From positions 64,001 through 128,000 of the forward strand of contig CAWENF010000021.1 of NCBI GenBank assembly GCA_963810275.1: DNA of 64,000 nucleotides, given 5' to 3'. The notes below the pieces were generated by a model. It saw only the letters and a list, made by a program, of their open reading frames with translations, did no database searches and was not told where the DNA came from. Positions 2,392 to 31,676 of the stretch are shown piece after piece (the stretch's first letter is position 1; every line of letters begins with the position of its first letter). This DNA comes from an uncultured archaeon (lineage in GTDB: Archaea > Thermoproteota > Bathyarchaeia > Bathyarchaeales > Bathycorpusculaceae). Position numbers and translations under genes: made by a program.

Positions 2392-2610
2392 GTGCTATTG
2401 CAAAAAAGAAAAATCTCTTTTTACAACCTGCCAATTCAACTTCATCATGTAAGCCCTAAGCGTTCTTCCAACTTGGGGAAATAAATCCCATTAACCCTTA
2501 AGTGGATGCCCGCCTGTTCACCCATGCAAGTTTTGATTTTCAAATAAGGTATAATAGGTTCGCATAACAAATTATCTTTGAAAATTCTAGAATAAAGGAA
2601 GACAAATCCT

Positions 2611-4053
2611 TTGACAAGGAAGGGATTATATATATTTTTTGCGCTTCTGCTCTTGACTAACTTAATGGCTTCAATTTTGCTTGGAACATTAAACGTTGCT
2701 GTGGCAGAGCATCAAAACAGAGTAGACGCCATGGCAACCTCTCAATCCACTGACGACTGGCCAATGTTTCACCATGACGTTTACCACTCAGGTTATTCCA
2801 CATCCGCGGCTCCAACAACAAACCAGCTCCTTTGGAAATACGAAACCGGCAATATGGTTGAATCTTCGCCTATTGTCGCCAACGGCATAGTCTATGCAGG
2901 CTCTGATGACGGTTTTGTCTACACCTTGAATTCTTCAACTGGCAAATTGATATGGAAATACTCAATAGGTCCGATGGTGGATTCTTCGCCCGCTGTTGCT
3001 AACGACGTAGTCTATATCGGAGCACTAAATCGTGATGGCAACATAAGCATCATTTATGCTTTGAACGCTACAACAGGCATTCAAATATGGAACTTAACAA
3101 CATGCGGACCTGTAGGATCTTCTCCCACTTCCGCCAATGGCACAGTTTATGTAAGCGCCTACATCGGGTTTTTTAAAGGTGCAATTTATGCTTTGACCGC
3201 CGCAACAGGCGAATTAATATGGAACTACCAAACAGATGGAGGAATGGAATCTTCTCCTGCTGTTGCCAACGGCGTAGTCTATGTTGGGTCAAATGACTGC
3301 ATGGTCTATGCTTTGAATCAAGCAAGTGGAGCATTGCTATGGAACTTCACAACGGGCGGGAGTGTGACTTCTTCTCCCTCAGTTGCTAATGGTGTTGTAT
3401 ATGTTGGTTCATGGGATGATAACGTATATGCTTTGAATGCTGTAACTGGCAAGCTATTATGGAATTATACAACAGGCTTAAATGTGGGGTCATCACCCGC
3501 AGTAGTCGATGGCGTAGTCTACATTGGTTCAGAAGACGGGAACGTATACGCTTTGAATGCAGCAACTGGATCTTTAGTATGGGAATACACAACAAAAGGG
3601 GCAGTTTGGTCATCCCCTGCAGTCATTAACGGAGTGGTCTACATAGGGTCAGAAGACAGAAACATGTATGCCTTGGATGCTAAAACAGGCACACAATTAT
3701 GGAACTTTACAACAGGTAAACAAGTAGAGTCTTCGCCCGCTGTATCCAACGGAGTAATCTATGTGGGCTCAAATGATGGTAACGTATATGCCTTTGGAAC
3801 AAACACTGTGTCATCATTAAACCCAACCTCTAATAGCTCCCTTCAGCCATCGCCCTCAGCTTCTTTCTCAACGTTACTTATTGTCATACTCGCCATTATG
3901 ATTGCTGCAGTTATAACCATAGTCATAGCTTCTCTACCATTCAAGCGGAAAGCAAAAACAAACAGAAAAGCCGACAATATCCCCGAAAAAATAGAAATGA
4001 AAATGCCAAATTGCATAAAAACAGATTTTACTCAAAGTCTCAAACCTGAATGA
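2611..4053 (+). CDS. Membrane-anchored PQQ-like/BamB-type beta-propeller repeat protein
   Basis: Signal peptide, WPMFHHD motif, ~8 repeats of SSP(A/S)V.NGVVY.GS.DG.VYAL.A.TG.L.W, Ser/Pro linker and C-terminal TM. Confidence 0.9.
   Translation: MTRKGLYIFFALLLLTNLMASILLGTLNVAVAEHQNRVDAMATSQSTDDWPMFHHDVYHSGYSTSAAPTTNQLLWKYETGNMVESSPIVANGIVYAGSDDGFVYTLNSSTGKLIWKYSIGPMVDSSPAVANDVVYIGALNRDGNISIIYALNATTGIQIWNLTTCGPVGSSPTSANGTVYVSAYIGFFKGAIYALTAATGELIWNYQTDGGMESSPAVANGVVYVGSNDCMVYALNQASGALLWNFTTGGSVTSSPSVANGVVYVGSWDDNVYALNAVTGKLLWNYTTGLNVGSSPAVVDGVVYIGSEDGNVYALNAATGSLVWEYTTKGAVWSSPAVINGVVYIGSEDRNMYALDAKTGTQLWNFTTGKQVESSPAVSNGVIYVGSNDGNVYAFGTNTVSSLNPTSNSSLQPSPSASFSTLLIVILAIMIAAVITIVIASLPFKRKAKTNRKADNIPEKIEMKMPNCIKTDFTQSLKPE
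3214..3795 (+). repeat. ~120-bp imperfect tandem repeats encoding beta-propeller blades
   Basis: Units such as tatgctttgaat, tatggaa and tcttc(t/g)cc recur at 120-bp spacing. Confidence 0.75.
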
Positions 4054-4554: not shown

Positions 4555-5424
4555 CTAAACCACGCCCAAAACAATTTTATCAACTACAAGACCAAGCATT
4601 AAGGCTGCCAAGTAGGGCATAGATGCAAAGAAAACCCTAAATCCGTTTGCTTCAGAGGGCACCAAAGTAAGCCTTCTACTCTCAAGCAGTAGCCAAGCAC
4701 CCCCAGACAGCGCAAACAAAGTATACATGCCTCCAGCTAACCCCAGAACGGGTAATATTAAAGTTGACGCCACGGTAGCTATGTTAAAGAAAAAAACGAT
4801 CTTTGCCGTTAACCCTAAACCCGCCGTGACAGGAAGCATAGGAATCTTAGCCCGCCGATACTCAGCTACCTTCTTGATGGCAAGCCCCCACAGATGCCCC
4901 GGCGTCCAAAGAAAATCAACCGTTGAAACCAGAAACGGCAATGCACCCACAGAGTTCGCTACAGCTGTCCAGCCTGAAAGAGCAGCAAAGCACCCTGCAA
5001 GTCCACCTATGACCACATTCCAATTGCTTGTGCGTTTCAAAAGAATGGTGTATACCAACAGGTAAAAGATTGCCCCCGAAAACATCATGACAGCAGTTAA
5101 GGCGTTGAAAAAGTAGTAGCTCATACCTAAGCCTGCTCCAATTAGAAGCACTCCAAAAATCAATCCCTTCCCAGACGTAATCTTCCCTGAAGGAATTGCC
5201 CGCTTTGAGGTTCTCTGCATGAGCAGATCAGAGTCCCGGTCGTATACACAATTCAATGCGCCGCATCCTCCACAGGCTAGGTATCCAGCAAGACAAAAAA
5301 TCGTTAAATCTAACCAATTGATTGATGGATAAGCTGCAAGGAAGAAGCAAGTTATCCCAACCAGTAGGTTAAGCAACGTCACCTTGGGTTTGGTTAACTC
5401 TAAGTACTTGAGAATTTTATCCAT
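4555..5424 (-). CDS. cyoE: Protoheme IX farnesyltransferase (heme O synthase)
   Basis: Motifs LTKPKV, NCVYDRDSDLLMQRT..R.IPSG, YTILLKR, WTPGH and EY..A.IPMLPV. Confidence 0.95.
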   Translation of the reverse strand: MDKILKYLELTKPKVTLLNLLVGITCFFLAAYPSINWLDLTIFCLAGYLACGGCGALNCVYDRDSDLLMQRTSKRAIPSGKITSGKGLIFGVLLIGAGLGMSYYFFNALTAVMMFSGAIFYLLVYTILLKRTSNWNVVIGGLAGCFAALSGWTAVANSVGALPFLVSTVDFLWTPGHLWGLAIKKVAEYRRAKIPMLPVTAGLGLTAKIVFFFNIATVASTLILPVLGLAGGMYTLFALSGGAWLLLESRRLTLVPSEANGFRVFFASMPYLAALMLGLVVDKIVLGVV

Positions 5425-5445: not shown

Positions 5446-5949
5446 TCATCCATAATCGGCGATAATAGTAACCGTGCCCCAAAGCCCTTTTTCAGTTTGA
5501 CCAGAAATTGGGCTTGTATAGAAAAAGGAGGTACCTACAATGTTTGGGTTAAAAACAACCGAACCGCTTTCTCCTTGCTGTAATGGATTGCTAACTGACC
5601 CTATAGCTGCATCAAAGACTACGGAAGATTCTGATCGTCGATCATTTGTGATTTGGAAAGCATGCGGCATCTTTCCAATATTAATCACCGTTAAATTGAC
5701 TAAATCACTTGTTTTAAACCTAAGAGTTGGTCCTGGAGTTGATAATTTGTTTGGTTCAGTTCCAAATCCGTATTGTGTATCAGATATTTCTCCTGCATAA
5801 AGCGTGATGTTTAATGTTGGAATCTCAGATGAAGCTGTTCCAGCAATGTAAGGTTGCTGTATAGGTAAAAGCAAGAAGAGTGCTACTGCAACGATAAGCG
5901 CAATTGCACACGCTGCTATGACAACCAATGGATAATAAGACTTGTCCAT
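5446..5949 (-). CDS. Membrane-anchored cupredoxin-fold protein lacking type-1 copper ligands
   Basis: Paralog of 9295..9894 (TLYAG, PGPTL, PHAF), but FYTSPISGQTEKGLWG replaces YVCTVPGHISLGMWG. Confidence 0.8.
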   Translation of the reverse strand: MDKSYYPLVVIAACAIALIVAVALFLLLPIQQPYIAGTASSEIPTLNITLYAGEISDTQYGFGTEPNKLSTPGPTLRFKTSDLVNLTVINIGKMPHAFQITNDRRSESSVVFDAAIGSVSNPLQQGESGSVVFNPNIVGTSFFYTSPISGQTEKGLWGTVTIIADYG

Positions 5950-5952
5950 TCC

Positions 5953-6216
5953 CTATCGCCCCACCGAAAGTATAGCCGTAACAATTAACGTGCTAATAGT
6001 AATAATTGCCAGAAGCGGAAGCAGAGATATAACTTTTTTTTCATACCGCAAATTCATAAAAAAGGCAGCATTTGTAACAGCTTGTGAGCCAGCTAAAATG
6101 AGTATACTAACAGCTTTATATTCAACTGATAGAGCGGTTGTGAAAATATAGATCTCGCCAAAAGTTGCCGCTACTAATAACCCCCAGATACTTATGTACA
6201 ATGTTTTTCTGTCCAT
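5953..6216 (-). CDS. Heme-copper oxidase subunit IV (CyoD/CtaF family)
   Basis: 87 aa, 3 TM helices, Q.......FMNLRYE motif. SD GGAGTG upstream of ATG 6216. Follows subunit III. Confidence 0.85.
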   Translation of the reverse strand: MDRKTLYISIWGLLVAATFGEIYIFTTALSVEYKAVSILILAGSQAVTNAAFFMNLRYEKKVISLLPLLAIITISTLIVTAILSVGR

Positions 6217-6227
6217 TTTTTTCACTC

Positions 6228-7019
6228 CTATATCAAATAGAAAAGCGGGAAAAGAAAAATCCAAACAATGTCGACAAACGCCCAATAGATTCCAATAAGC
6301 TCAAGCGAAGTATGCGATAAAGGCGTAAATCGACCAGCAAAGCCTTTAGCCATAAGATAGGTAAGCCCACCTAAACCTATGCCTACATGAATGGCGTGTA
6401 ACCCCATCAATGTATAGTAACTAGAAGGTGCTAGTCCCCCAGTTATTACAAATCCGTTAGCAATCTCTCGCGGCCATTCGATGGCAAGTTTAACCATCAA
6501 AAATAACGAGCCTAAAGTGAAGGCACTTAGCAGCCCCATCTTTATGCCTAGTTGATCATTTTTTCTTGCTGATTGGACAGCAAGAACCATCGCCAGACTG
6601 CTCGTTAAAAGGAAAACAGTATTTACAGCCCCAATGACGACATTATGTGTCTCTCCAGCTACTGGCCACGTTGGGCTTCCTAATCGTACATATATATATC
6701 CGAAGATTATGCAGCCAAACAACACTATCTCGGACATTAGAAAAACCCAGACACCAATTTTCTCTTTGCTGGCAGTTTCAAAGGGCCATTTTTCTCTTAC
6801 GGGCTCCTTGACTACTGCATACTTGTCATGGTAGTCGTCTATGAACCATTTTACAACAGCACCCGCGATTATCACTAACCCAGCTATTGCAAGCGGGATA
6901 AACATGATAAATCCATATAGAAAAAGAATTGTACCGATCGCGATAACTACTGGAAGAAAAGTCCGTTTTTTTGGTTCTTCATCTATGGTGTTGTCCTGTT
7001 CATTCGTAGTCGTTGACAT
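6228..7019 (-). CDS. coxC: Heme-copper oxidase subunit III
   Basis: Motifs GVWVFLMSEIVLF, NTVFLLTSS, GLHAIHV and YWAFVDIVWIFLFPLFY. SD GGAGG upstream of ATG 7019. Confidence 0.93.
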   Translation of the reverse strand: MSTTTNEQDNTIDEEPKKRTFLPVVIAIGTILFLYGFIMFIPLAIAGLVIIAGAVVKWFIDDYHDKYAVVKEPVREKWPFETASKEKIGVWVFLMSEIVLFGCIIFGYIYVRLGSPTWPVAGETHNVVIGAVNTVFLLTSSLAMVLAVQSARKNDQLGIKMGLLSAFTLGSLFLMVKLAIEWPREIANGFVITGGLAPSSYYTLMGLHAIHVGIGLGGLTYLMAKGFAGRFTPLSHTSLELIGIYWAFVDIVWIFLFPLFYLI

Positions 7020-7020
7020 C

Positions 7021-8580
7021 TTAGCCGCCTCCTCCTTTTTCCACTGTTGATTCAGGCATGTCTGGTTCTGCCGAGATATAATCACCGGTCCATTCAGGTG
7101 CTACTGCATCCCACGGGTTTGGTTTGCAACGCTTGCCTCTAAAGGCGCTATGTCCAATATTTATAAAAGAAATTAAGAGAACAGGACCAAAGATAAGTGC
7201 GCCTATTGTAGCAACTAAATTAAAGGGCCACCATTCAGGATTGCTACCATAGCTGGCTACTCTTCTTGGCATGTCTACAAGCAAAAAGTATGGAAAATAA
7301 AGAACGTTGAAACCTAAGAACGAAAAAAGAAAAGTAATCTTTCCAATTTTCTCGTTGTACATTCTGCCTGTGATTTTAGGGAACCAGTAGTAGAGTGCAG
7401 CTACTAGACCAAAGATTGTGGTCCCCACCATTACATAATGAAAGTGTCCTACAACCCAGTAAGTACCTCTATAAGCATAATCCAAAGCTATTGAGGCCTG
7501 AAAAACACCTGTGATTCCGCCCAAAATTACGAAAAATAAAGCGCCCATTGCATAGAGCATAGGTGTAGGAATTTTCAAAGCGCTTTTGCGCAAAGTGAGA
7601 ATCAAACCAATAACTAAGCCCTCAAAAGGAACAGAAATCGCCATTGTCGTCAGGGAAAAAACTTCTCTAACTTGCAAGCTTATTCCTGTCATAAACATGT
7701 GATGGATCCATACTCCAGCACTAAGCACCGTAACTGCAGCCATTTCTATTATGAAAACTTTCTTCTGGAAAAGGGGTCTTTTACTGAATGTAACGAATAT
7801 CTCTGCTATGGCACCGAGAGCAGGGAGAACCACTATGTATACTTCGGGGTGTCCAAAAAACCAGAAAAATTGGTCCCATAAAAGTGCCCCCCCAAGAGGA
7901 CTGGAAAAGAATACAGTACCAAATACGCGGTCAGTAATAAGCAAGACAGCGGCTGCTGCTATGGGCGGAAAGGCAAAGAGCATCAGAAAATTTGTAAACA
8001 AAACAGACCAAGTGAACGGAGGCATTTTCCACCAGTGCATGCTTTTGATTCGTGTTCTAAGAATGGTAGTTATGAAATTAACTGAAGACATAGTAACTGA
8101 AGCCGCAAGTATACCTAACGCAAGAACACCAATAGCCATTCCAGGTTGCGGCATGTAAGCGCTTGTATTAAGCGGCGCATACATTGTCCAACCTGCTTGT
8201 GGTCCACCGCCTGGCAAAAATATGGTACTCACAAGCATAAGCCCGCTTAAAACGTACAACCAATAGCTCATTGCGTTTAATCTGGGAAAAGCCATTTCTT
8301 TTGCGCCTATCTGTGTTGGAACAAAATAGTTAGCCAAAGCTATTCCAAAAGGAGACAAAAACCAAAGAATCATTATCAAACCATGAAAACTAATGGCTTG
8401 TTCGTAAAGACCAGGTGTAAGAAGCCCACCATTTGGAACAGCCAGTTGGCCTCGAACCGTCTCCGCTATGGTACCGGCTAAAGTAAGAAAAAATATAGAA
8501 GTAACCAGATATAGAAGACCAACGTCTTTGTGGTTGGTAGTAGTTAACCATCTTTTTAGTGAAAACCCTTTTTCGTACAC
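7021..8580 (-). CDS. coxA: Heme-copper oxidase subunit I, A-family (A1-like GHPEVY)
   Basis: Motifs TTNHKDVG, FHGLIM, MAFPRLN, GWTMYAPL, WFFGHPEVY, WIHHMF, GHFHYV and MPRR. Confidence 0.97.
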   Translation of the reverse strand: MYEKGFSLKRWLTTTNHKDVGLLYLVTSIFFLTLAGTIAETVRGQLAVPNGGLLTPGLYEQAISFHGLIMILWFLSPFGIALANYFVPTQIGAKEMAFPRLNAMSYWLYVLSGLMLVSTIFLPGGGPQAGWTMYAPLNTSAYMPQPGMAIGVLALGILAASVTMSSVNFITTILRTRIKSMHWWKMPPFTWSVLFTNFLMLFAFPPIAAAAVLLITDRVFGTVFFSSPLGGALLWDQFFWFFGHPEVYIVVLPALGAIAEIFVTFSKRPLFQKKVFIIEMAAVTVLSAGVWIHHMFMTGISLQVREVFSLTTMAISVPFEGLVIGLILTLRKSALKIPTPMLYAMGALFFVILGGITGVFQASIALDYAYRGTYWVVGHFHYVMVGTTIFGLVAALYYWFPKITGRMYNEKIGKITFLFSFLGFNVLYFPYFLLVDMPRRVASYGSNPEWWPFNLVATIGALIFGPVLLISFINIGHSAFRGKRCKPNPWDAVAPEWTGDYISAEPDMPESTVEKGGGG

Positions 8581-8583
8581 TTT

Positions 8584-9246
8584 CTAACTTACTCCTTGGC
8601 TTGCAGCGGTCTGGTTTAGCCATTGAGCAAATGCTTGTTGACTCATGACTACTAGATTAGCATCCATGAAGGTATGTCCAATTCCGCAGAGTTCATAACA
8701 TTTAATTTGATAAGTGAGTTCATTCTGTCCCTCGAGGGAGGGCACGCTTAACCAAATGATATTGTATCTATCGGGTATAGCATCAGTTTTAATCTTGAAC
8801 TGCGGTAATCCAAAATCATGCATAACGTCCTTGCTTGTAACATTAAAAATAACAGTCGTATCCACAGGGATTCTACAATCAGTGGCTACAGTTACATTGT
8901 TTGGATAAGTGAATTCAAATGCCCACTGGAAGGCAGTAACATCGATAACTATAGCATTTGGATCATTAGGCGGTGTTTGAATTCCATAAGCAACTTGATC
9001 AGACAGTATCGATAAAGTGAAAAGTATACTTAAAGAAACCATGGCAAGAACAATTGCTTCTCTTGCTCTGGATTTGAAATGTACTTTAGATATCTTGAAT
9101 TCCCGTCGCCCGACGTTCTTACGGTTAACATAAGCATAATAAACCATATAGCCAACTACTATGCCGCCAGCTACTATCCCTATTATGAAAAATGGTGTGA
9201 AAAGATTGTAGTAAGTTTCCGCTGTCGGGGGAATCGGCAAACTCAT
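8584..9246 (-). CDS. coxB: Heme-copper oxidase subunit II with CuA centre
   Basis: 2 TM helices, FQWAF, DVMH and CYELCGIGHTFM. No CxxCH heme c motif. Confidence 0.95.
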   Translation of the reverse strand: MSLPIPPTAETYYNLFTPFFIIGIVAGGIVVGYMVYYAYVNRKNVGRREFKISKVHFKSRAREAIVLAMVSLSILFTLSILSDQVAYGIQTPPNDPNAIVIDVTAFQWAFEFTYPNNVTVATDCRIPVDTTVIFNVTSKDVMHDFGLPQFKIKTDAIPDRYNIIWLSVPSLEGQNELTYQIKCYELCGIGHTFMDANLVVMSQQAFAQWLNQTAASQGVS

Positions 9247-9294: not shown

Positions 9295-9894
9295 TTAACT
9301 GACCACTACATTGCCCCACATGCCAAGAGAAATATGTCCTGGAACAGTGCATACATAGTAATAGTTGCCTGCTTTGTCAGGAGTAAATGTAACTGACGCT
9401 GATGTGCCTGGCGGTATATAGCTAGATATGTTAATGCCTGCACCAAACAATGGTGAGTTGCTTGTCGCTTTTGTTGAGACTATTTCCCATGAATGTGGAA
9501 TTTTACCCGCATTATGAACAGTCATGGTATACGTTGTACCCGCCTTAAGGTGTAAGGTAGGACCTGGAGAAACTATACTACTTGCGCTATCTCCGTAGCC
9601 ATAGGTACCTGAACCAGAGGTAACTGAGCCAGCGTATAATGTTAAAGAAGTCTGGCTCCCTGAACCAGACGGAGCGGGAGAAGTTGATGGTGAAACTGAT
9701 GTAGAAGTGGATGGTGTAGAAGAGGGGGAAATTGATGGGGAGGATACAGGCGTTGACGTCGGCAGCACATTTGATGAATTGGGTAACGTGATTTCGTAAG
9801 TTATTACCCCAACAGCTATGATAATCACTGTTACTACGATTGCAGCGACGTACCAGCCTATGCTTATTTTGGTATCTTCTGTGTTTTCTGCCAT
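9295..9894 (-). CDS. Membrane-tethered type-1 blue copper protein (sulfocyanin/rusticyanin/halocyanin-like)
   Basis: N-terminal TM, Ser/Thr/Pro linker, ligands PHSW and YVCTVPGHISLGM. First gene of the oxidase operon. Confidence 0.9.
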   Translation of the reverse strand: MAENTEDTKISIGWYVAAIVVTVIIIAVGVITYEITLPNSSNVLPTSTPVSSPSISPSSTPSTSTSVSPSTSPAPSGSGSQTSLTLYAGSVTSGSGTYGYGDSASSIVSPGPTLHLKAGTTYTMTVHNAGKIPHSWEIVSTKATSNSPLFGAGINISSYIPPGTSASVTFTPDKAGNYYYVCTVPGHISLGMWGNVVVS

Positions 9895-9995: not shown

Positions 9996-10064
9996 CCTTA
10001 TACTGCTGGTATAGATTTAAAGTCTAGAATACAAACGTGTTGGGTCTTAGTTGTTTTCATACCG

Positions 10065-10625
10065 CTAATGGCGAGTTCTTTGAAGAACATTTAAAATTTT
10101 ATTTGCACGATCAACCCAGCCTAATCCCGCATATAAATCAAGTTTTGAATCTAGAGGCATTACTGAAATATTATGGCCCACAACTGAAACATAGTCTGAT
10201 GAAATACTAATTTTGTCACCCCAATCCCAATTATCAATCTGAAGTTGCAAATCTCCATAAACTTTAACGGGAACATCGTTTACTTGGAAATCAAAATTAT
10301 AGCTTCGAATTTTAATCGGATACTCTTTCTGTTCAACCAAAGCTTTACGCGGAAGACATTCTACTTTGAATTCTATGTCTGAGGGGTGAAAATCTTTGAC
10401 TCTGATGAAAATTTCTTGAGCACCCTCTTTGGTTGTTATTATTTCTATTCTTTCGGGATCCACATCTACGGTTCTTATGGCTTCCCCTAAATCACCACAT
10501 ATCATCCAAGGCGTACTTATGTCACCGATTTTACCTTCTAAGGCAACCAATGCATCTATGTATTTCAAAGCTATTAATTTAACAGGGCGTTTAACATCTT
10601 TTTCTGAAGTTTCAATATAAATCAA
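10065..10625 (-). CDS. Hypothetical protein with nucleotidyltransferase-like fold and degenerate catalytic motif
   Basis: WMICGDLGEAIRTVDVDPERIEIIT resembles the W...GS.....G....P.DIDI.T NTase motif, with RIE in place of DID. Confidence 0.6.
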   Translation of the reverse strand: MIYIETSEKDVKRPVKLIALKYIDALVALEGKIGDISTPWMICGDLGEAIRTVDVDPERIEIITTKEGAQEIFIRVKDFHPSDIEFKVECLPRKALVEQKEYPIKIRSYNFDFQVNDVPVKVYGDLQLQIDNWDWGDKISISSDYVSVVGHNISVMPLDSKLDLYAGLGWVDRANKILNVLQRTRH

Positions 10626-10779
10626 GTTAATTATGACCTCTAAAATACTTAATATTAATTAAATACTCAATTTAAATCTGTGTATATGTATCATAACAGC
10701 AACTTTTATTGTAGGCACAACTAAGTAGACACATATGTTTTAAAGGACTTATTAGGATACTTAACTAGAGGTTTTTTTT

Positions 10780-11762
10780 ATGTCAACTGATGAAACGGCT
10801 AACGACCAGACTAAAGAGCAAAACAGCAAACCTATGGATAGACGACGCTTCATCAAGTATGGAGTCGCAGGCGTTATTGGTGCGGGTGCCGCAAGCGCTA
10901 TAGAAATACCAGTTTTGACAAATATGGTTAACGCTGACACGACTAAGGTGCAAGAGCTTCAAAGTCAAGTTAGCAGTTTAAACAGTGAAGTTAGCAGTTT
11001 GAATAGTCAAGTCAACACTAGATAAAACTCAACTTGCCGCCGCACAGAGTCAACTATCGGGTGCACAAGCAATTATTGACTTTAGCATTACGGAACAAAA
11101 AGAGCTTGAGGCAATTGTTGAAACAGTAATCCCCAACGATTCGTCTGGTCCTGGAGGGAAGGAAGCAGGCGTTGTCTACTTCATTGCCAATCAAATATCC
11201 ACAGATTATGGTAGTAACGCTAGGATGTACATGAAAGCGCCCTTTGTCCAACCTGGTTTAAGTGGCCCCGTAACAGTTGATGGAATAACATATCCTGAAG
11301 GCACATATGATGTTCCATTTTTCTCAGGCATGAAATACCAGTACAACCTAACTATGAGGGAGTTCTGGAGAGTAGGTCTTGGAAGGATTAGAGAAATATT
11401 CAAACAGCGTATTGGGCAAAAACTTTGAAGATTTAAACACAAATGACCGAACATCAATGCTAAACGACCTCTATGACAACAAGCCTAGCGACTTCAATGG
11501 AATTGTTCCCCGTGACTTCTTCCAAGAGTTGCTACTTATGACATGGTCAGGCTTCTTTATGGATCCCGCATATGGTGGTAACATAGGAATGGTTGGTTGG
11601 AAACTCACCGGTTTTAGTGGCGCTAACATGGGCAACGCATTCAACGATGGCAGAGATGTTTTAAAGTTGATGGTAGCCAGCACTCCAACAAGATATGCAC
11701 CGCATAGTTTAGGCGAATACCAAAAAACGCTAAAAATAATCAATGGAGGAACAAGTTCATGA
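10780..11762 (+). pseudogene. Gluconate 2-dehydrogenase subunit 3 (gamma)-like Tat protein, interrupted by two +1 frameshifts
   Basis: Tat motif DRRRFIK. After a shift at ~11020 the frame reads ELEAIVETVIPNDSSGPGGKEAGVVYFI...YG...MYMKAPF. After a shift at ~11379 it reads GFFMDPAYGGNIGMVGWKLTGF. Removing 2 nt gives 326 aa. Confidence 0.85.
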
Positions 11763-13567
11763 GCCAAGTAATCACTCATCCATCCGTAGACGTTGTCGTC
11801 TTAGGCTTGGGTGCAATGGGAGGAGTCGTAGCCACAGAGTTGGCTAAGGCAAACTACAAAGTAGTAGGTTTAGAAAGAGGACCTCAATGGGATTACTACA
11901 ATGATTTCTATGCCACGAAATATGATGAATGGGGCATAGGCATGATGCGCAAATACAGCGACCTATTGAGAACTTCAACAGTAACTATGAGAAACAACAG
12001 AAACCAGTTTGCCCAGCCCGTCCGTAGAAACACACCCCCAGTTGCAGGACAATTCACTTCAACAGGTTATGGTGTTGGAGGTGCATGTCAGCACTATTCG
12101 GGCAACATGGGGCGCTATTCACCATGGGTCTATGAGATGTATTCACAGACTGTGAACCGATATGGCTTAGATTTCCTCAACAATGCTGTACCTCACCAAG
12201 ACATCACTGATTGGCCAATGACATATAACGACTATGTTCCCTACTATGAAACATGGGAGCAGATGTGGGGAGTTTGCGGAACAAATGAAGGACCGCTTCT
12301 TCCAAGCCTAACAGGGTATCCTCTGCCGCCTCCACCAGACACGCCTATCGGAACAGCCTTCAAGAGTGCAGCCACAGATTTAGGATATACACCCTTCCCA
12401 ACACCACTCGCTTTAGCCTCTAAAGGCTTCGTCAACCAATACGGCGTAGCCGTTCAGCAATGCGCATATGATGGCTGGTGTGGAGCTGCATGCAACTATG
12501 TTTGTGAAACAGGTGCGAAAGCAAACACAGACTTTAGAGTTATACCTGCTGCTTTGAAAACTGGGAATCTCGAGATGAGACTTCACAGCTACATATTCCG
12601 ATTGGATACTGATAGTTCTGGAAAAATTACCGCTGCCCGCTACTATGACCCACAAGGCAGGGTTAACGTTCAACCCGCCAAGGTATTCTTCAACGGTCTT
12701 TGGGGATTCAATGCAGTAAAAATGATGCTGCACTCAGGAATCGGCACTCCCTATGACCCCGTGAAAATCACCGGTTCAATGGGTAGAGGACCAGCAACAG
12801 GAGACCCGGGTGCAGCAGTCAGAAGTGCCTCTGGAACCCTTAACATAGGAGCCAATGCGTATCCCGCAGGCAACGCTGGCGGAGGCTACTCAATTCGAGA
12901 CTTAGCTGATGACAACTTTGATCACACAGGCTTAGACTTTATCGGAGGCGCCTACCCGGTGGGCGTCGGAAGCTTCACAGGTGGAGGCCCAACGAACTTC
13001 TACATCTACGCAGCAAACCCAAACAAGAACATGATTGGAAGCACATTTAAAGCAGGCCTTAAAGACCATTTCCTGCCCACAAAAACAAAGCTAACACTTT
13101 CGCCTTATGGGATGTGGCCGCCGACAACCGATTGGTTCATTGATTTGGACCCACATTACACAGACATCTATGGAGACCCACTACCGAGATATACTATAGA
13201 TTGGGGCATGAACACCGTTAAATGCGCCAATTACCTTGCACCAATGTATGGCGATATACTGTCAAAAATGGGGGCAAGCAATGTTCAGGTCTCCAACCCA
13301 GTTAATACTGAAAGCCATATGACTACCTGGAGTATTCACATTCGAGGCGGTGCACGACTAGGAACTGATCCGGCAGTTTCCGTTTTTAACAAGTGGCAGC
13401 AATGCTGGACCAGCGACAACCTGTTTGGAGCAGGCGAATATTGTGACCCGACAGGCGATAACACAACTATCGGTGGAACGCATCCAGTAGGACCAACATC
13501 GTATGTTGCTGCTGAAGGCATAAAGAAATATCTGCAAAGCCCAGGTCAGCTTGTATCATCACCTTAA
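11759..13567 (+). CDS. GMC-family flavoprotein oxidoreductase (gluconate 2-dehydrogenase alpha-subunit-like)
   Basis: DVVVLGLGAMGG...LERG, GVGG, DWPMTY, Cys cluster CAYDGWCGAACNYVCETGAK, DLDPHYTDIYGDPLPR, H..GGARLG.DP..SV.N. ATGA overlap with the gamma gene. No signal peptide. Confidence 0.9.
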   Translation: MSQVITHPSVDVVVLGLGAMGGVVATELAKANYKVVGLERGPQWDYYNDFYATKYDEWGIGMMRKYSDLLRTSTVTMRNNRNQFAQPVRRNTPPVAGQFTSTGYGVGGACQHYSGNMGRYSPWVYEMYSQTVNRYGLDFLNNAVPHQDITDWPMTYNDYVPYYETWEQMWGVCGTNEGPLLPSLTGYPLPPPPDTPIGTAFKSAATDLGYTPFPTPLALASKGFVNQYGVAVQQCAYDGWCGAACNYVCETGAKANTDFRVIPAALKTGNLEMRLHSYIFRLDTDSSGKITAARYYDPQGRVNVQPAKVFFNGLWGFNAVKMMLHSGIGTPYDPVKITGSMGRGPATGDPGAAVRSASGTLNIGANAYPAGNAGGGYSIRDLADDNFDHTGLDFIGGAYPVGVGSFTGGGPTNFYIYAANPNKNMIGSTFKAGLKDHFLPTKTKLTLSPYGMWPPTTDWFIDLDPHYTDIYGDPLPRYTIDWGMNTVKCANYLAPMYGDILSKMGASNVQVSNPVNTESHMTTWSIHIRGGARLGTDPAVSVFNKWQQCWTSDNLFGAGEYCDPTGDNTTIGGTHPVGPTSYVAAEGIKKYLQSPGQLVSSP

Positions 13568-13631
13568 CTTCCCATTTCTTGTTTTCTTTGATTGCAATGA
13601 ATGGCTTTTTTCTTAATTAGTCTGCTATAAA

Positions 13632-14474
13632 TTGTGTTCTAAAATGAAGCAAATAGCTGTTATGACTCCGCTCCCAGTCCAATTTGACAATTTCACAGAA
13701 TACATTCTGAAGCAATGCTGGAATAGCCTCAATAATCAATTCATTCTCTCAGGTGACTTAATTCATGTTTATTTCTCATCAACCCCTAAACTGTACGATA
13801 AATATGCTACCTACCTTTCAGAAAATTTCAGGTTGCCCTACACTCTTCTTGAGGTCAAGCAAGTAAAAAGCGGTGTATTAGAGGGCAAGGATGCACGATT
13901 ACCTGAGCTAGTACATCACCGTAATGTATTACTAAACCAGGGCAAAAAGCATGATTACGCATTGTTTTTGGATTCTGATGTAATTTTAAGCCCAAATACA
14001 ATAAAAACATTGATTTCGGATCAAAAAGATGTTTCTGCTGGAATATTGCCGCAGGCACGCATTGCTTCCCCGATAAGAATCGAGGAGGGACAAGTCCAAA
14101 ACGCAGATGACATCGACGTTTTTTTAGCATTCGGAATATTTGATGCAAAATTTCTTTCCGTAACTTGGGGAAACATGCAGAAAGCGGATGCATCCGATGT
14201 TGTAGCGACAGCCTGCATGCTTCTGAGCCGGAAAATAATGAATGATAATCGAGTAGCTTTCCGCTTATTCCCCTTAGTTGATGGAAGTTGCTATTTAGGT
14301 GAAGACGTGGGCTATTGTCTTTCTGCTCTTCGCGCAGGTTTCACCGTTAACGTCAACCCAACCGTCTTTTGTGGTCATATGCGTAGAATACAAGAGCGGC
14401 TAGCAGCTTATTTACAAGTTACTAACGGCCAAAAGTGTACAATTAATTTTTTGTTTTGGTCTAAACCTCTTTAA
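13632..14474 (+). CDS. Glycosyltransferase family 2-like protein
   Basis: Motifs HRN, ALFLDSDV, TACMLL and GEDVGYC. Confidence 0.7.
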   Translation: MCSKMKQIAVMTPLPVQFDNFTEYILKQCWNSLNNQFILSGDLIHVYFSSTPKLYDKYATYLSENFRLPYTLLEVKQVKSGVLEGKDARLPELVHHRNVLLNQGKKHDYALFLDSDVILSPNTIKTLISDQKDVSAGILPQARIASPIRIEEGQVQNADDIDVFLAFGIFDAKFLSVTWGNMQKADASDVVATACMLLSRKIMNDNRVAFRLFPLVDGSCYLGEDVGYCLSALRAGFTVNVNPTVFCGHMRRIQERLAAYLQVTNGQKCTINFLFWSKPL

Positions 14475-14597
14475 ACTATTAGCAGCTGTAATAGTATACA
14501 CACAGCCTCATAGCTTTTTAACTCAACGTACCTCAAATAAAATAGCTAAATTTTGTAATAGGTGTGATCTGAATTATTATCAGATAAAGTAGCTATT

Positions 14598-15386
14598 GTG
14601 ATTGCAGCATTAGTACTCGTTTTCATAATTGTAGTGTCATTGATATCCTACGTGTACATTGTATTTCCCTTAACAAACACGAACACTACACCTCCAGCAT
14701 CCACGCCGACGAGCACACCTTTGTCTAAGCCAAGAATTTCAACTGATGTAAACTGGGGAGGTTATGCAGTAGCAACGAACTTCAGCCAACCGCTCCCGGT
14801 TGTAACAGAGGTTAGCGCATCATGGGTTGTTCCTCAAGTAAAAGCCTCAGCCACAGATACGTTTTTAGCCATCTGGGTAGGAATAGGCGGAACATTTGGT
14901 AACACATTAATTCAAGTAGGCACTGAGCAAGACAGCCTTAATGGACAGCCAACATACTATGCATGGTACGAACTTTTACCTACACCTTCAGTACCTATTT
15001 TCTCTGTCGCAATATCTCCAGGCGATAAAGTACTGGCGACAGTTAAACTATTAGATTCAGCTACAAATCAATGGTCGATTTATATAATCAACCTATCAAA
15101 CCAAGAAAGCTTCAACCAGACCTTCAGTTATACATCAAGTCAACTTTCAGCCGAATGGATAGTAGAGCGCCCGACTGTTAACGGAAAGTTCAGAGCATTA
15201 GCGGATTTTGGTCAGATAAGCATGTCAAACTGTACTTTAACGCTAAACGGGGTTTCTGGTGATTTAGCTGATTTCAATTATGTTAAAACGGTTCTTGTTA
15301 ACCAACAACGAATTCCACTTCTGAAAATTTCAGATGTCGGAAACGACAAAGCCAGCTTTACAGTAAGCTATCTACCCATTGCATGA
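14598..15386 (+). CDS. Peptidase G1 family (glutamic peptidase/eqolisin), membrane-anchored
   Basis: Motifs NWGGY, WVGIGG, LIQVGTEQD (catalytic Gln), AWYE and SAEWIVERP (catalytic Glu). N-terminal TM plus Thr/Pro linker. Confidence 0.9.
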   Translation: MIAALVLVFIIVVSLISYVYIVFPLTNTNTTPPASTPTSTPLSKPRISTDVNWGGYAVATNFSQPLPVVTEVSASWVVPQVKASATDTFLAIWVGIGGTFGNTLIQVGTEQDSLNGQPTYYAWYELLPTPSVPIFSVAISPGDKVLATVKLLDSATNQWSIYIINLSNQESFNQTFSYTSSQLSAEWIVERPTVNGKFRALADFGQISMSNCTLTLNGVSGDLADFNYVKTVLVNQQRIPLLKISDVGNDKASFTVSYLPIA

Positions 15387-15484: not shown

Positions 15485-16051
15485 ATGAAAAAAATGGCAA
15501 TATTTCTATTGGTATCTCTCATGGCAGCAGCATCTTTGACAATTGGTGCAGTACCCGTTGAAGCACAAGGGAACACAGCTAACATTACATTGTATGGTGG
15601 ACCTGTATCCTCAGGAGCCTCTGGAACCTATGGGTTTGGATACTCAGCAGACAACATAACCTCGCCTGGACCTACAATCACTTTGCACGATGGAGAAAAA
15701 GTAACAGTAACTTTTCACAACGTTGACACATCTTTGCCACACTCCTTTGCAGTAACCACAGGAAAAAGCGACAGCTCAACAGTGCTATTTAATTCTGAAA
15801 CTAACCCTGGAACATACGTTCAGCCTGGTCAAACAGCTACAGTGACTTTCACAGTCAGCGACAATGTTGGTGATTACTACTACATATGCAAAGTACCAGG
15901 ACACGTTGACTTAGGCATGTGGGGAAACTGTGTAATCGAAGCAGCCATTCCTGAATTTCCAATGAGTATCATGCTTATCTTTGTACTGGCTGCAGGAGCT
16001 GCAGTAGCGATTTCAGTGGCTCGAATTAAGACCAAACCTAAACTTGTTTAA
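15485..16051 (+). CDS. Secreted type-1 blue copper protein with PEF-CTERM sorting signal
   Basis: Signal peptide, PHSF, YICKVPGHVDLGM, then IPEFP followed by TM and a basic tail. Confidence 0.9.
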   Translation: MKKMAIFLLVSLMAAASLTIGAVPVEAQGNTANITLYGGPVSSGASGTYGFGYSADNITSPGPTITLHDGEKVTVTFHNVDTSLPHSFAVTTGKSDSSTVLFNSETNPGTYVQPGQTATVTFTVSDNVGDYYYICKVPGHVDLGMWGNCVIEAAIPEFPMSIMLIFVLAAGAAVAISVARIKTKPKLV

Positions 16052-16173: not shown

Positions 16174-16548
16174 ATGACACTAGTTTTTGTCGCTTTAGGA
16201 ATCGGAATAATCGGCATGGCGATCGCTAGGATTAGAAACAGAGATTCCATTCAGCTACATAGGTGGACAATGACAGGCGCAATCGTACTAAACTTAATCG
16301 CAATAGGCGTTGTAATGCTTCCTTCACTGTTCATATTCTACCTTAGCCCAAATCTTGAAATGGCATCTTCTTTTTCGATTCTACAACTAATCCACGCCAT
16401 TGCTGGGATTCCAGCAATAACTTTTGCGTTAATATTTGCATTAAATGATCTGCCGAAACCTACTAAAAAATGGATGCGCATAACCGCTTCTTTGTGGCTT
16501 ACAAGCATAGCTTTGGGTGCAATAGTTTACTTCACTATGCCGAATTAA
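16174..16548 (+). CDS. DUF420-like membrane protein (paralog of 4125..4553)
   Basis: Shares VALG, HRW, PSLF, FSILQ.IH and NDLP..T.KWMRITA.LW with the paralog. May start at ATA 16132. Confidence 0.75.
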   Translation: MTLVFVALGIGIIGMAIARIRNRDSIQLHRWTMTGAIVLNLIAIGVVMLPSLFIFYLSPNLEMASSFSILQLIHAIAGIPAITFALIFALNDLPKPTKKWMRITASLWLTSIALGAIVYFTMPN

Positions 16549-16553
16549 GTTTT

Positions 16554-18110
16554 TCATTTTTTATGAAATTTTGCAATCTCTTTGGAAATCAGCAGTTCGT
16601 CGATATGGAGCATCAACGATGAAACTTCGTATGCACGTCTCACAATAGAACGTAAAACTGCAATAGACTGAGTGCAAACGCCTTCGGTGCATCCCTGCAC
16701 ACCAACACCATAGCTTGCCAAACCGCTATCATGAAGTTGACGTAGTTTTATGAGTATTTCTGTAGAATTTAAGCCATAGTTTTCAGCGAGACATCGAGGT
16801 ATATCAATCAATGCTTCAGCAAAGGCTTCTATAGCCAACTGATGCCTGTTTGGAATAGTCAATGCATAGCGATGAAGTTCTTGAGCTATCATAATTTCAA
16901 CTGCTCCAGCACCTGGCAAAAACTTAGGCTCTTTGTCAGAAAGCTTCAGAGTTATCAAACTATTTTTTATAGCAACTTCAAGCTCATCAAGAATACAGCG
17001 GGTATTTGCCCTTAACAAAAACGTGGCACCGCCACAGCCTTGAAAAGTAACAGTTTTTTCCAGATCTAACTTATCCACAGACAACGCTTCAGCTTTACCC
17101 ACATCATCTTTAGATAAGTCACTGATTAACGCTAAAACTTTAGCGCCAGTTGCCCTAGCAATGCCTTCTAAATCGTTTTTGGTCACACTTTCAATTGCAA
17201 AGATACCGTTCATTACCAAAGCAGTTTTCTGACGCTCTTCGATAGGCTGCGCAGAGACCAAAACATTGATTTTATGCTTGACAAGCACCTTCAAGTAACT
17301 ATTTTCTAATTTTTCTGTTACCTGATTTAATTGTTGAATTTGTTGATGATTTGTTATGTTAACCTGGATAGGAATGGGTCCTTCTCGCCGCATTTTAAGC
17401 TCCAAACGATTTATGCCTAAATGCCCACTGGTAACGGCAACTCGTAGATCTTTAACGTGATTAGGCATGTTTGGGTGAGCCTTATCCTTTCTTATAATAA
17501 TACCATCGATCAAAGTTGATTCTTGAGCACAGCAACCGATTTTTTTTATAAAACCTACATTATCGATGTCGAAGCTTCCGTTAGAGAAACTTCGGGTATA
17601 TGCTCGTCTAATCATCAAACGTAGTTTTGGCGTCAGAAGGTTTCTGCCACAATCTATAGAATCTAAAACATCACCGTCGCAACCTATTGATTTTGATTGC
17701 ATTTCCATAATTTCAGTGGCTTTTTTTGCCGCCAAACTATACCCTTCAACAATTGTATTGGGGTGTAATCCCATTGCGGATAGAGTGTCAGCCTGTTTTA
17801 GCAGAGCTGAAAGAAAAACTACAAAGCAGGCGGCGCCATCCCCGATTTCATTTCTCTGCATCTTTGCTGATTCCGCAACAATAATAGCGGGGGGATAATT
17901 AATAGCAAGTTCGTCTAAAATAGCAATTGAATCTTTTGTAACTTTTACTACTTGCTCTGGGCCACGGTTGTAGGTTACAAGCTTGTATGCACCTGTTGGT
18001 CCTATTGTGCTTCTTATTTTATCTGAAGCAAATATGGCTTGTTGAAGGTTTTGGGTCCATGCCTCTTTTGCGTTAAATCTGTTATAATTGGAAGAAATTA
18101 CTCGCTCCAT
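16554..18110 (-). CDS. Divergent group II chaperonin (TCP-1/thermosome-like)
   Basis: Motifs STIGPTGAYK, EIGDGAACF, LHPNTIVEGY, PGAGAVE, AFAEALIDIPRCLAENYG and MLHIDE. Confidence 0.88.
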   Translation of the reverse strand: MERVISSNYNRFNAKEAWTQNLQQAIFASDKIRSTIGPTGAYKLVTYNRGPEQVVKVTKDSIAILDELAINYPPAIIVAESAKMQRNEIGDGAACFVVFLSALLKQADTLSAMGLHPNTIVEGYSLAAKKATEIMEMQSKSIGCDGDVLDSIDCGRNLLTPKLRLMIRRAYTRSFSNGSFDIDNVGFIKKIGCCAQESTLIDGIIIRKDKAHPNMPNHVKDLRVAVTSGHLGINRLELKMRREGPIPIQVNITNHQQIQQLNQVTEKLENSYLKVLVKHKINVLVSAQPIEERQKTALVMNGIFAIESVTKNDLEGIARATGAKVLALISDLSKDDVGKAEALSVDKLDLEKTVTFQGCGGATFLLRANTRCILDELEVAIKNSLITLKLSDKEPKFLPGAGAVEIMIAQELHRYALTIPNRHQLAIEAFAEALIDIPRCLAENYGLNSTEILIKLRQLHDSGLASYGVGVQGCTEGVCTQSIAVLRSIVRRAYEVSSLMLHIDELLISKEIAKFHKK

Positions 18111-31405: not shown

Positions 31406-31676
31406 ATTCGCTACTAAAAAGCGAACTAAAATCTGCCAAATCAAAGCATTTTATTACAATAAATATTTAAAAATTTGGCTAATTCTTAAAGAGTTTAAAT
31501 CCTTGTATGACACTATATAAATTTGAAGAGTCAACGATTTTGGAACTATAAAATGCTAAGTCTTCATTGTGTCAAATTCATCTCAGTTTGATTCTGAGAT
31601 AAAGCAACTCATTTGAATTCATAAAACGTTGACTACATAAAAAAACAATTACTGGATATTAAGGAGAGAATAAAAA

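Follow-up and report, generated by a model that had tools for sequence, protein, structure and literature searches.

Here we describe a pair of genes in a stretch of 64,000 nucleotides (contig CAWENF010000021.1, positions 64,001 to 128,000 of the forward strand; "the window" hereafter means this whole stretch) from the 2.26-Mb genome of a soil archaeon of the family Bathycorpusculaceae, referred to below as the source genome. Judged by sequence and predicted fold, the genes encode the alpha (flavoprotein) and gamma (small) subunits of a flavin adenine dinucleotide (FAD) dehydrogenase of the direct-electron-transfer type, belonging to the family that includes fructose dehydrogenase (FDH), FAD-dependent glucose dehydrogenase (FAD-GDH), and gluconate 2-dehydrogenase, and found here in an archaeon. 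We hold with high confidence that the pair constitutes an exported FAD/iron-sulfur (Fe-S) dehydrogenase. The module in which it resides has no gene for a cytochrome c subunit, and on balance we favor a route through cupredoxins as the path by which alpha-gamma passes on its electrons. The features of the pair are as follows.

10780-11762, plus strand: gamma ("hitch-hiker") small subunit (open reading frames [ORFs], Pfam Gluconate_2-dh3, and reads)
10834-10899, plus strand: twin-arginine translocation (Tat) signal of gamma, consisting of M-D-RRRFIK, a Gly/Ala-rich h-region, and A-S-A (translation)
10939-11089, plus strand: heptad (predicted coiled-coil) linker of gamma, about seven heptads, rich in Q/S/N/T/L and spanning the first frameshift site (frame 1 and frame 2 translations, periodicity)
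10963-11012, plus strand: 21-bp tandem repeat, 2.4 copies, encoding heptads (Tandem Repeats Finder)
11022, plus strand: extra base, first apparent frameshift (run contigs)
11377, plus strand: extra base, second apparent frameshift (run contigs)
11759-13567, plus strand: alpha flavoprotein with a glucose-methanol-choline (GMC)-fold FAD domain, 602 aa (ORF, phmmer, AlphaFold2, Foldseek)
12461-12505, plus strand: predicted Fe-S motif of alpha, C235-x5-C241-x3-C245-x3-C249, with Asp238 (alignment to the FDH Cys-rich region)
13337-13339, plus strand: His527 of alpha (HMMER alignment with FDH His1147)

The gene for alpha is intact, encodes 602 aa, and overlaps the stop codon of gamma with its own start in the sequence ATGA. 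Its Rossmann motif begins at residue 9, which leaves no room for a signal peptide. In phmmer searches against the sequences of the PDB, alpha recovered the large subunit of FDH with E values of 4e-17 to 7e-17 and the alpha subunit of the Burkholderia FAD-GDH (BcGDH) with an E value of 2e-11. An AlphaFold2 model of alpha, built from a 37-sequence alignment (mean pLDDT 81, pTM 0.88), was used for Foldseek searches, in which the nine best matches were all FDH or BcGDH (E values of 1.4e-32 to 1.3e-26), with the pyranose oxidases coming next; the best matches, 8k6k_A (1.4e-32) and 6a2u_B (4.5e-27), gave TMq values of 0.67 to 0.70. Together with the match of gamma to Pfam Gluconate_2-dh3, these results bear out an initial annotation of the region, which had proposed a gluconate-dehydrogenase-like pair with a gamma domain in its small subunit and a flavoprotein devoid of a signal peptide. 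The family is well populated: 693 database proteins match alpha at an E value of ≤0.001, dozens of them at 64 to 91% identity, and its named relatives either carry the label "gluconate 2-dehydrogenase alpha chain" or come from metagenome-assembled genomes of Bathyarchaeota, Thaumarchaeota, and Nitrososphaerales. In NCBIfam, alpha, gamma, and a neighboring protein, N (see below), all lack a family above the cutoff. Since the nearest enzymes oxidize sugars, a sugar, polyol, or other alcohol is the candidate class of substrate.

The three glycines of the N-terminal FAD-binding GxGxxG motif (G16, G18, and G22) are invariant in the 37 aligned sequences, as are C235, C241, C245, C249, H112, H527, and H575. 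His112 aligns with the flavin-linking His in the GVGG..H segment of FDH, so that alpha keeps this residue of the family, a predicted site of covalent flavin attachment; in BcGDH, FAD is covalently attached to His105 (PMC6719666). The initial annotation had singled out the Cys cluster of alpha as unusual. It is indeed present, at residues 235 to 249, but it is no oddity, as it aligns with the Cys-rich 3Fe-4S region of FDH and, with its four invariant Cys, represents the predicted Fe-S site of the family. The C235-x5-C241-x3-C245 spacing equals that of the ligands of BcGDH, to which C249 is added as a fourth Cys; in BcGDH, Cys212, Cys218, and Cys222 are the ligands of a surface 3Fe-4S cluster that relays electrons between FAD and the heme subunit (PMC6719666). 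Cys is absent from all three frames of gamma, so that C249 cannot form an alpha-gamma disulfide like that of BcGDH, and a cluster with four ligands is possible. Asp238, within the motif, is the usual residue in the clade, and Cys takes its place in the two genus relatives first examined. Beyond the Fe-S site, His527 aligns in HMMER with the catalytic His1147 of FDH, while Asn1190 of FDH is aligned to Gly572, with the invariant His575 three residues further on. Two segments containing these histidines, TTWSIHIRGG and GGTHPVGPT, had been described as divergent; both are present, but the 120 closest homologs of alpha commonly share them, so that they are typical of its own clade.

The gamma gene requires more careful treatment because it is not a single frame in the window. 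The ORF listing divides it over three frames (10780-11025, 11003-11428, and 11376-11762), with two +1 shifts spanning 355 bp, and the Gluconate_2-dh3 domain (PF13618) is split between the last two of these (profile positions 3-65 and 52-135). The small subunit had initially been presented as one protein, and although its signal, heptads, and gamma domain are all there, the two shifts had gone unmentioned. We compared positions 10000 to 14000 of the window with Logan contigs of four public runs, among them one of DNA (X1) and two of RNA (X2 and X3), and gave no weight to depth or to gaps in coverage. X1, represented by nine contigs, lacks one base at 11022 and one at 11377, carries a G>C substitution at 11372, and is otherwise identical to the window. 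X3, from a slightly different strain, shows both deletions as in X1 along with the same substitution. An X2 contig breaks off at 11021, and the 11 bases of its loose end fit the first deletion. The frameshifted form of the window was seen in none of the runs compared. With both extra bases removed, gamma becomes a single frame of 326 codons that aligns throughout with gamma from nine related loci and in which the a/d register of the heptads continues unbroken across the first frameshift site. On the evidence of X1 and X3 at both sites and of X2 at the first, gamma is one intact frame; the two shifts either arose in assembly or represent a variant private to the assembled strain, and the gene is intact in the population. 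Contigs from three RNA runs overlie parts of gamma and alpha at 95 to 100% identity, a hint that the pair is expressed.

Two other explanations of the shifts were considered. Both are in the same direction, a feature compatible with programmed +1 ribosomal frameshifting, but this is ruled out by the DNA and RNA contigs, which lack the extra bases; gamma is moreover single framed in all nine relatives inspected and in the metagenome loci, and the probability of such a mechanism is practically nil. The second explanation is that we are dealing with a decaying pseudogene pair in which two frameshifts have truly disrupted gamma, export of alpha has become impossible, and the whole island is on its way out. 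The occurrence of two +1 shifts within 355 bp of the window fits this explanation, as do the patchy distribution of the module, with alpha in 11 of the 61 congeneric genomes, and the state of the congeneric genome G022, in which alpha is in seven fragments and COX1, for an oxidase subunit discussed below, is in two. We nevertheless regard decay as improbable here, given that no run contains the frameshifted form, that the otherwise identical contigs of X1 as well as X3 lack both extra bases, that alpha, N, the cupredoxin gene B1, the oxidase genes, and the chaperonin gene T are all intact, and that alpha has retained every clade-invariant residue. As for G022 itself, its island (contig C3, 66 to 77 kb; loci L005-L012) is apparently decaying, with stops among the alpha fragments and gamma likewise in pieces, and it still has a full-length T paralog.

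The intact gamma would provide the route of export. Inspection of its translation and alignment revealed a Tat signal that is conserved in relatives, the RRRFIK motif and hydrophobic helix noted in the initial annotation being part of this signal, with the helix as its h-region. It also resembles the Rieske TAT signal of Pfam, though the match is weak (E value of 0.0078). The presence of a Tat signal on gamma and its absence from alpha, along with tatC and tatA immediately upstream of the window (C21:62981-64032, ending at window base 32, about 11 kb from gamma), are in line with the outward-facing enzyme that had been proposed. Between the signal and the gamma domain lies the heptad linker. 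Tandem Repeats Finder detected a 21-bp repeat at 10963-11012 (2.4 copies, 86% matches, score 79), which encodes heptads of S/Q/N/V/L, and in the read-supported linker, large hydrophobic residues are spaced at 3.5-residue intervals with a z of 7.9, a value reached by none of 2,000 shuffles; both results corroborate the previously noted heptads encoded by 21-bp repeats. Of 90 homolog linkers with 28 or more residues, 63 show such periodicity at p ≤ 0.05. In all nine gamma relatives from the loci, a Tat motif, a Gly/Ala-rich h-region, and a linker rich in Q/S/N/T/L precede the domain. Of 120 database homologs, 104 have both the twin arginine and an I-P-x-D landmark, and the distance between these ranges from 59 to 146 residues (median of 74), with common values of 63/64, 67, 70/71, 74, 77, 80, 84, 91, 98, and 112, i.e., in steps of about 3.5 or 7 residues; that of the gamma in the window is 91. 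Counted in heptads, natural linkers run from 3 to about 16. From these sequence patterns, we conclude that the predicted coiled coil is real, conserved, and variable in length. The 21-bp DNA repeat could be one way by which the linker changes its length.

Anchoring of the enzyme to the membrane by such a stalk would depend on retention of the Tat signal. An alternative, which we consider quite possible if somewhat short of probable, is that the coiled coil serves otherwise than as a membrane stalk: with the signal cleaved after A-S-A, the heptads would dimerize or trimerize a soluble alpha-gamma complex or dock it to a coiled-coil protein or the S-layer. The small-x-small A-S-A, conserved in close relatives, lies right after a short Gly/Ala-rich h-region of about 15 residues. 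The twin-arginine signals of bacterial gamma subunits are cleaved, and the linker has weak matches in Pfam to LPP and TolA_bind_tri, i.e., to trimeric Lpp and TolA-binding coiled coils. The bacterial gamma has been described as a hitch-hiker protein with an N-terminal twin-arginine signal peptide (PMC6719666). Weighing on the other side, the conservation of I-E-I-P, at and just beyond the putative site, is unusually strong for a signal that is to be discarded, and the weak matches to the uncleaved Rieske Tat anchor are seen in some homologs as well as here. Anchoring by an uncleaved signal enters the reading developed below as a conditional part.

Related loci were collected (9 from species genomes, 79 from metagenomes, and 2 from genus relatives), 89 of which hold alpha, and their ORFs were labeled with phmmer and with a cupredoxin profile made from Pfam-confirmed seeds. 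We searched these loci for the cytochrome c subunit that serves bacterial members of the family. Neither the window nor any of the 89 related loci contains an ORF that matches a cytochrome c query or has at least two CXXCH motifs, and the absence of such a gene from the locus, noted in the initial annotation, thus extends to its relatives. In the source genome, matches to PF00034 and PF13442 are confined to one 529-aa protein on contig C6, which is also the only ORF with at least two CXXCH motifs. It combines FixO with two cytochrome c domains, has three hemes in the manner of CcoO/P, and belongs to the following cluster.

Contig C6, 7304-12805 (locus L022): cbb3-type oxidase cluster (cytochrome c assembly protein, COX1-like subunit, fused FixO and dihaem cytochrome c)

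From its sequence and from its position beside the genes for a COX1-like subunit and for cytochrome c assembly, we assign this protein as a subunit of a cbb3-type oxidase and not of the dehydrogenase. A cognate cytochrome c encoded elsewhere had been named in the initial annotation as a finding that would refute it, and this applies only by half: the genome does encode one c-type cytochrome, but of the FixO/CcoP-like kind, beside a cbb3-type oxidase. This cytochrome occurs in 7 of the 61 genomes of the genus and together with alpha in the source genome only (1 of 11 alpha-bearing genomes). Among five alpha-bearing relatives (92 to 96% complete, with positive controls), none had a match to PF13442 or PF00034. 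Contamination as the source of contig C6 is ruled out, as the same protein is present in the chromosomes of 6 of 60 other congeneric genomes, including single-contig assemblies.

What surrounds the pair instead are genes for cupredoxins and a heme-copper oxidase. The neighboring features are as follows.

4555-5424, minus strand: UbiA-family gene, heme O synthase-like (Pfam)
5446-5949, minus strand: cupredoxin-fold protein B0 (Pfam)
5953-6285, minus strand: COX4 (Pfam)
6228-7085, minus strand: COX3 (Pfam)
7021-8580, minus strand: COX1 (Pfam)
8584-9246, minus strand: COX2, with a motif that we take to be of the CuA type (Pfam and reading of the translation)
9295-9894, minus strand: cupredoxin B1 (Pfam)
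10065-10625, minus strand: protein N, 186 aa (ORF, AlphaFold2, Foldseek)
13632-14474, plus strand: GT2-like gene (Pfam)
14598-15386, plus strand: peptidase A4 (Pfam)
15485-16051, plus strand: cupredoxin B2 (Pfam, alignment)
16174-16548, plus strand: DUF420 (Pfam)
16554-18110, minus strand: T, a divergent thermosome paralog (group II chaperonin; Pfam Cpn60_TCP1)

B1 has an N-terminal membrane helix, an S/T/P linker of about 60 aa, and a type-1 copper domain with the His, Cys, His, and Met ligands; it matches Copper-bind (5e-9) and SoxE (6e-7) in Pfam, and Cupredoxin_1 is also among the matches of B1 and B2. B2 has a signal peptide, the copper domain, and a C-terminal P-E-F followed by a hydrophobic tail. 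In the cupredoxin alignment, H134 and C182 are invariant and the tail C-x-x-P-G-H-x-x-x-G-M is present, leading us to predict that B1 and B2 are type-1 (blue) copper proteins that bind copper. B1 orthologs flank gamma in relatives, and many of them, like B2, carry a signal peptide as well as a hydrophobic tail of the P-E-F/Y kind at the C terminus. More generally, B2 and the cupredoxins of loci L019, L020, L028-L031, and L054 end in P-E-F/Y, a hydrophobic stretch, and basic residues, a tail that we take to resemble the PEF-CTERM sorting signal of archaeosortases. B0, encoded within the oxidase operon, keeps the first His and, as read by eye, has lost the Cys, His, and Met copper ligands of B1 and B2; it may be a structural subunit of the oxidase.

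The association of these genes with the pair is recurrent. Two layouts predominate: type I, that of the window's clade (65 to 72% identity), with the order B', gamma, alpha, N, UbiA', B', COX4', COX3', COX1', COX2', and type II (50 to 54% identity), with the order B', B', gamma, alpha, N, T. The window has the type I gene set in a rearranged order. Cupredoxins were counted with our own profile because a PF00127 search of the source genome came back empty though PF00127 matches B1 directly, an indication of its insensitivity. A search for archaeal AmoA (PF12942) was also without a match, but its control gave none anywhere, which makes it uninformative. By this profile, a cupredoxin is present anywhere in the locus in 34 of 45 loci with flanks of at least 5 kb and among the three ORFs before alpha in 21 of 37 loci with at least 2.4 kb upstream. 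Of 61 loci that extend at least 700 nt beyond alpha, 45 have N among the next three ORFs, and T or oxidase genes are found downstream in 36 of 44 loci with at least 2.5 kb there. As a baseline, only four ORFs of the source genome match the cupredoxin profile, three of them at 5.4 to 16 kb of the window, within 6.5 kb of gamma-alpha, and just 1.8% of 12-kb intervals of that genome contain a cupredoxin. Across the 61 genomes of the genus, alpha occurs in 11 (fragmented in one); the T paralog is present in 14 (11 of 11 alpha-bearing genomes versus 3 of 50 others), a B1-like cupredoxin is present in 21 (11 of 11 versus 10 of 50), and a COX1 of the window's type is present in 11 (9 of 11 versus 2 of 50), counts that, like those of the neighborhoods, are not independent, because the lineages and genomes are kin. 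Alpha, T, the B1-like cupredoxin, and COX1 lie on one contig within a span of about 10 kb. Across the class, alpha was found in 18 of 301 genomes, spread over 4 of 107 genera.

The module further includes two genes, for N and T, whose products lack signal peptides on inspection. N, a cytoplasmic protein that in the window is inverted and upstream of gamma, gave an AlphaFold2 model with a pLDDT of 91, whose Foldseek match is 2ewr (the uncharacterized TM1012 nucleotidyltransferase; E value of 8.4e-13), with weaker matches to antibiotic nucleotidyltransferases; its neighbors in the Atlas are archaeal hypothetical proteins. T matches Cpn60_TCP1 (5e-97) and scores 308 to 663 bits against 27 full-length or nearly full-length locus-linked T proteins (492 to 533 aa) versus 190 to 207 bits against five other paralogs of the source genome. 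In those five, a motif reads GDGTT[ST], of which GDGTT is presumably the group II chaperonin nucleotide-binding motif; it is GDGAAC in T, and all 27 locus-linked orthologs have GDG[VIA][STA]x. The source genome has six Cpn60_TCP1 genes in total, one of them at 31674-33317 of the window. N and T might have a role in the folding or cofactor loading of alpha prior to its export by Tat.

On the basis of these observations, a mechanism can be conceived in which alpha folds and acquires FAD and its Fe-S cluster in the cytoplasm, possibly with the help of N and T, and then binds gamma, whereupon the complex would be exported by Tat. Once outside, the flavin would oxidize a sugar, polyol, or other alcohol, and the Fe-S cluster would take up the electrons from FAD. 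B1 or B2, as type-1 copper proteins tethered to the membrane, would then relay them to CuA of the oxidase and so to O2, bypassing quinone, complex III, and cytochrome c. The coiled coil would set the distance between the head and the membrane if the signal is kept as an anchor or would oligomerize the complex if the signal is cleaved. The whole may form a compact, self-contained respiratory chain. In its most complete form, this reading sees a self-contained and patchily inherited island, leading from outside substrate to O2, in a mostly oxidase-less genus: an exported FAD/Fe-S dehydrogenase on a length-tunable stalk would feed tethered blue copper proteins and a CuA oxidase without quinone, bc complex, or cytochrome c, while a dedicated chaperonin paralog and a maturation factor of the nucleotidyltransferase fold would see to folding and cofactor loading. 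We put this full version forward only tentatively and think it doubtful that all its parts hold together. The transfer of electrons to blue copper proteins, a proposal of the initial annotation, is favored by the conserved neighborhood and co-occurrence, the transfer step itself being an extrapolation from these. A complex prediction with alpha, a gamma domain (residues 100 to 322), and the B1 cupredoxin domain (residues 83 to 199) scored 0.00 against a mark of 0.32 in a run made without controls and counts neither way.

Several points weigh against this reading, in addition to the kinship behind the above counts. With the profile used, 11 of the 45 well-flanked loci have no cupredoxin. Genome G075 has alpha, T, and a cupredoxin, and no COX1 was found in it at an E value of ≤1e-40, so that the oxidase is not an obligatory partner. 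The source genome makes a c-type cytochrome, which leaves a cytochrome route open in this organism. Within the enzyme, the Fe-S loop of the alpha model has a pLDDT of <50, and the second catalytic residue is uncertain because FDH Asn1190 aligns with Gly572 and not with His575. The DNA of the window itself does contain two frameshifts in gamma, and should the assembled strain truly carry them, its enzyme would not be exported. Finally, the conserved A-S-A after the h-region fits cleavage by signal peptidase, which would remove the membrane anchor. A rival reading is that the enzyme is exported as described but leaves the cupredoxins unused, its acceptor being O2, as in pyranose oxidase, a quinone reached via an unrecognized membrane partner, or, in the source genome, the cytochrome c domains of the cbb3 oxidase. 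The rank of the pyranose oxidases as the next structural matches after FDH and GDH, the loci lacking a detected cupredoxin, and the three-heme CcoO/P-like protein all lend something to this possibility. We nonetheless judge it unlikely, as the four invariant Cys at the predicted surface Fe-S site imply that electrons leave the enzyme for a protein partner, the cbb3 cytochrome accompanies alpha in just 1 of its 11 genomes in the genus, and cupredoxins accompany it in all 11. The cupredoxin route is the one that we favor, in the qualified manner stated at the outset.

A few neighboring genes fall outside these considerations. Just upstream of the oxidase operon (409-4053, plus strand) are genes for a 660-aa protein with a C-terminal 4Fe-4S dicluster domain and then a 480-aa pyrroloquinoline quinone (PQQ)-like beta-propeller protein. 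Between alpha and B2 (13632-15386, plus strand) lie the genes for the GT2-like glycosyltransferase and the peptidase A4 protein, the latter with a Thr/Pro-rich N-terminal region; these two are not part of the conserved module of other loci.

The family to which the alpha-gamma core belongs is a known one. Direct-electron-transfer FAD dehydrogenases are known as bacterial trimers of alpha, gamma, and cytochrome c subunits and are widely used in biosensors. A literature search at the level of listings and abstracts found no paper on the missing heme subunit, the cupredoxin/oxidase linkage, the variable coiled coil, the two accessory genes, or an archaeal module, and in passages of PMC10924467 the gamma fold is mentioned for bacteria only. 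If our reading is correct, an archaeal branch of the family with gene-linked blue copper proteins in place of the heme subunit would represent a second natural wiring of this Fe-S flavoenzyme to the respiratory chain and would offer a simple model for the oxidation of external substrates by archaea with few or no c-type cytochromes. As the dehydrogenase, cupredoxins, and A-type oxidase are found together in about one-sixth of the genomes of the genus, their distribution suggests that O2 respiration was gained and lost in this genus as one island. The heptad-quantized linker offers an opportunity to test the idea of a molecular spacer in the archaeal pseudoperiplasm, and the strict co-occurrence of T with the dehydrogenase is a rare hint of a group II chaperonin dedicated to a client.

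Among characterized systems, FDH of Gluconobacter japonicus (FdhL/FdhS/FdhC; PDB 7w2j, 8jej, and 8k6k) is the best match of alpha in both sequence and fold. The two share the GMC fold, the Cys-rich Fe-S region, the aligned catalytic His, and a small partner subunit with a Tat signal, but they are only about 20% identical, and the alpha described here has four Cys (C-x5-C-x3-C-x3-C) and a 4-residue insert relative to FDH. In FDH, a three-heme cytochrome c subunit serves as both anchor and electron acceptor, whereas there is none here, and gamma, unlike its FDH counterpart, has a coiled-coil linker. The FAD-GDH of Burkholderia cepacia (PDB 6a2u and 8grj), matched by alpha at 2e-11 in sequence and 4.5e-27 in fold, resembles it in the C-x5-C-x3-C spacing of the 3Fe-4S site, the conserved His for covalent FAD, and a Tat hitch-hiker gamma (PMC6719666). 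It differs in having a three-heme beta subunit, absent here, a disulfide from Cys213 to gamma, which in our case has no Cys, and a His/Asn catalytic pair, where alpha has the invariant His575 near the position of the Asn. On the acceptor side, the closest parallels are the cupredoxin-dependent oxidases of archaea, of the sulfocyanin/SoxM type and with halocyanin: B1 and B2 match the SoxE (sulfocyanin) family and are encoded beside a CuA-type heme-copper oxidase. In those systems, however, the electron donors are quinol-oxidizing complexes and not an exported FAD/Fe-S dehydrogenase. The logic proposed here, of an exported dehydrogenase that would hand its electrons to a gene-linked type-1 copper protein, is the same as that of methylamine dehydrogenase and amicyanin, although methylamine dehydrogenase is an unrelated tryptophan tryptophylquinone (TTQ) enzyme and amicyanin passes the electrons on to cytochrome c.

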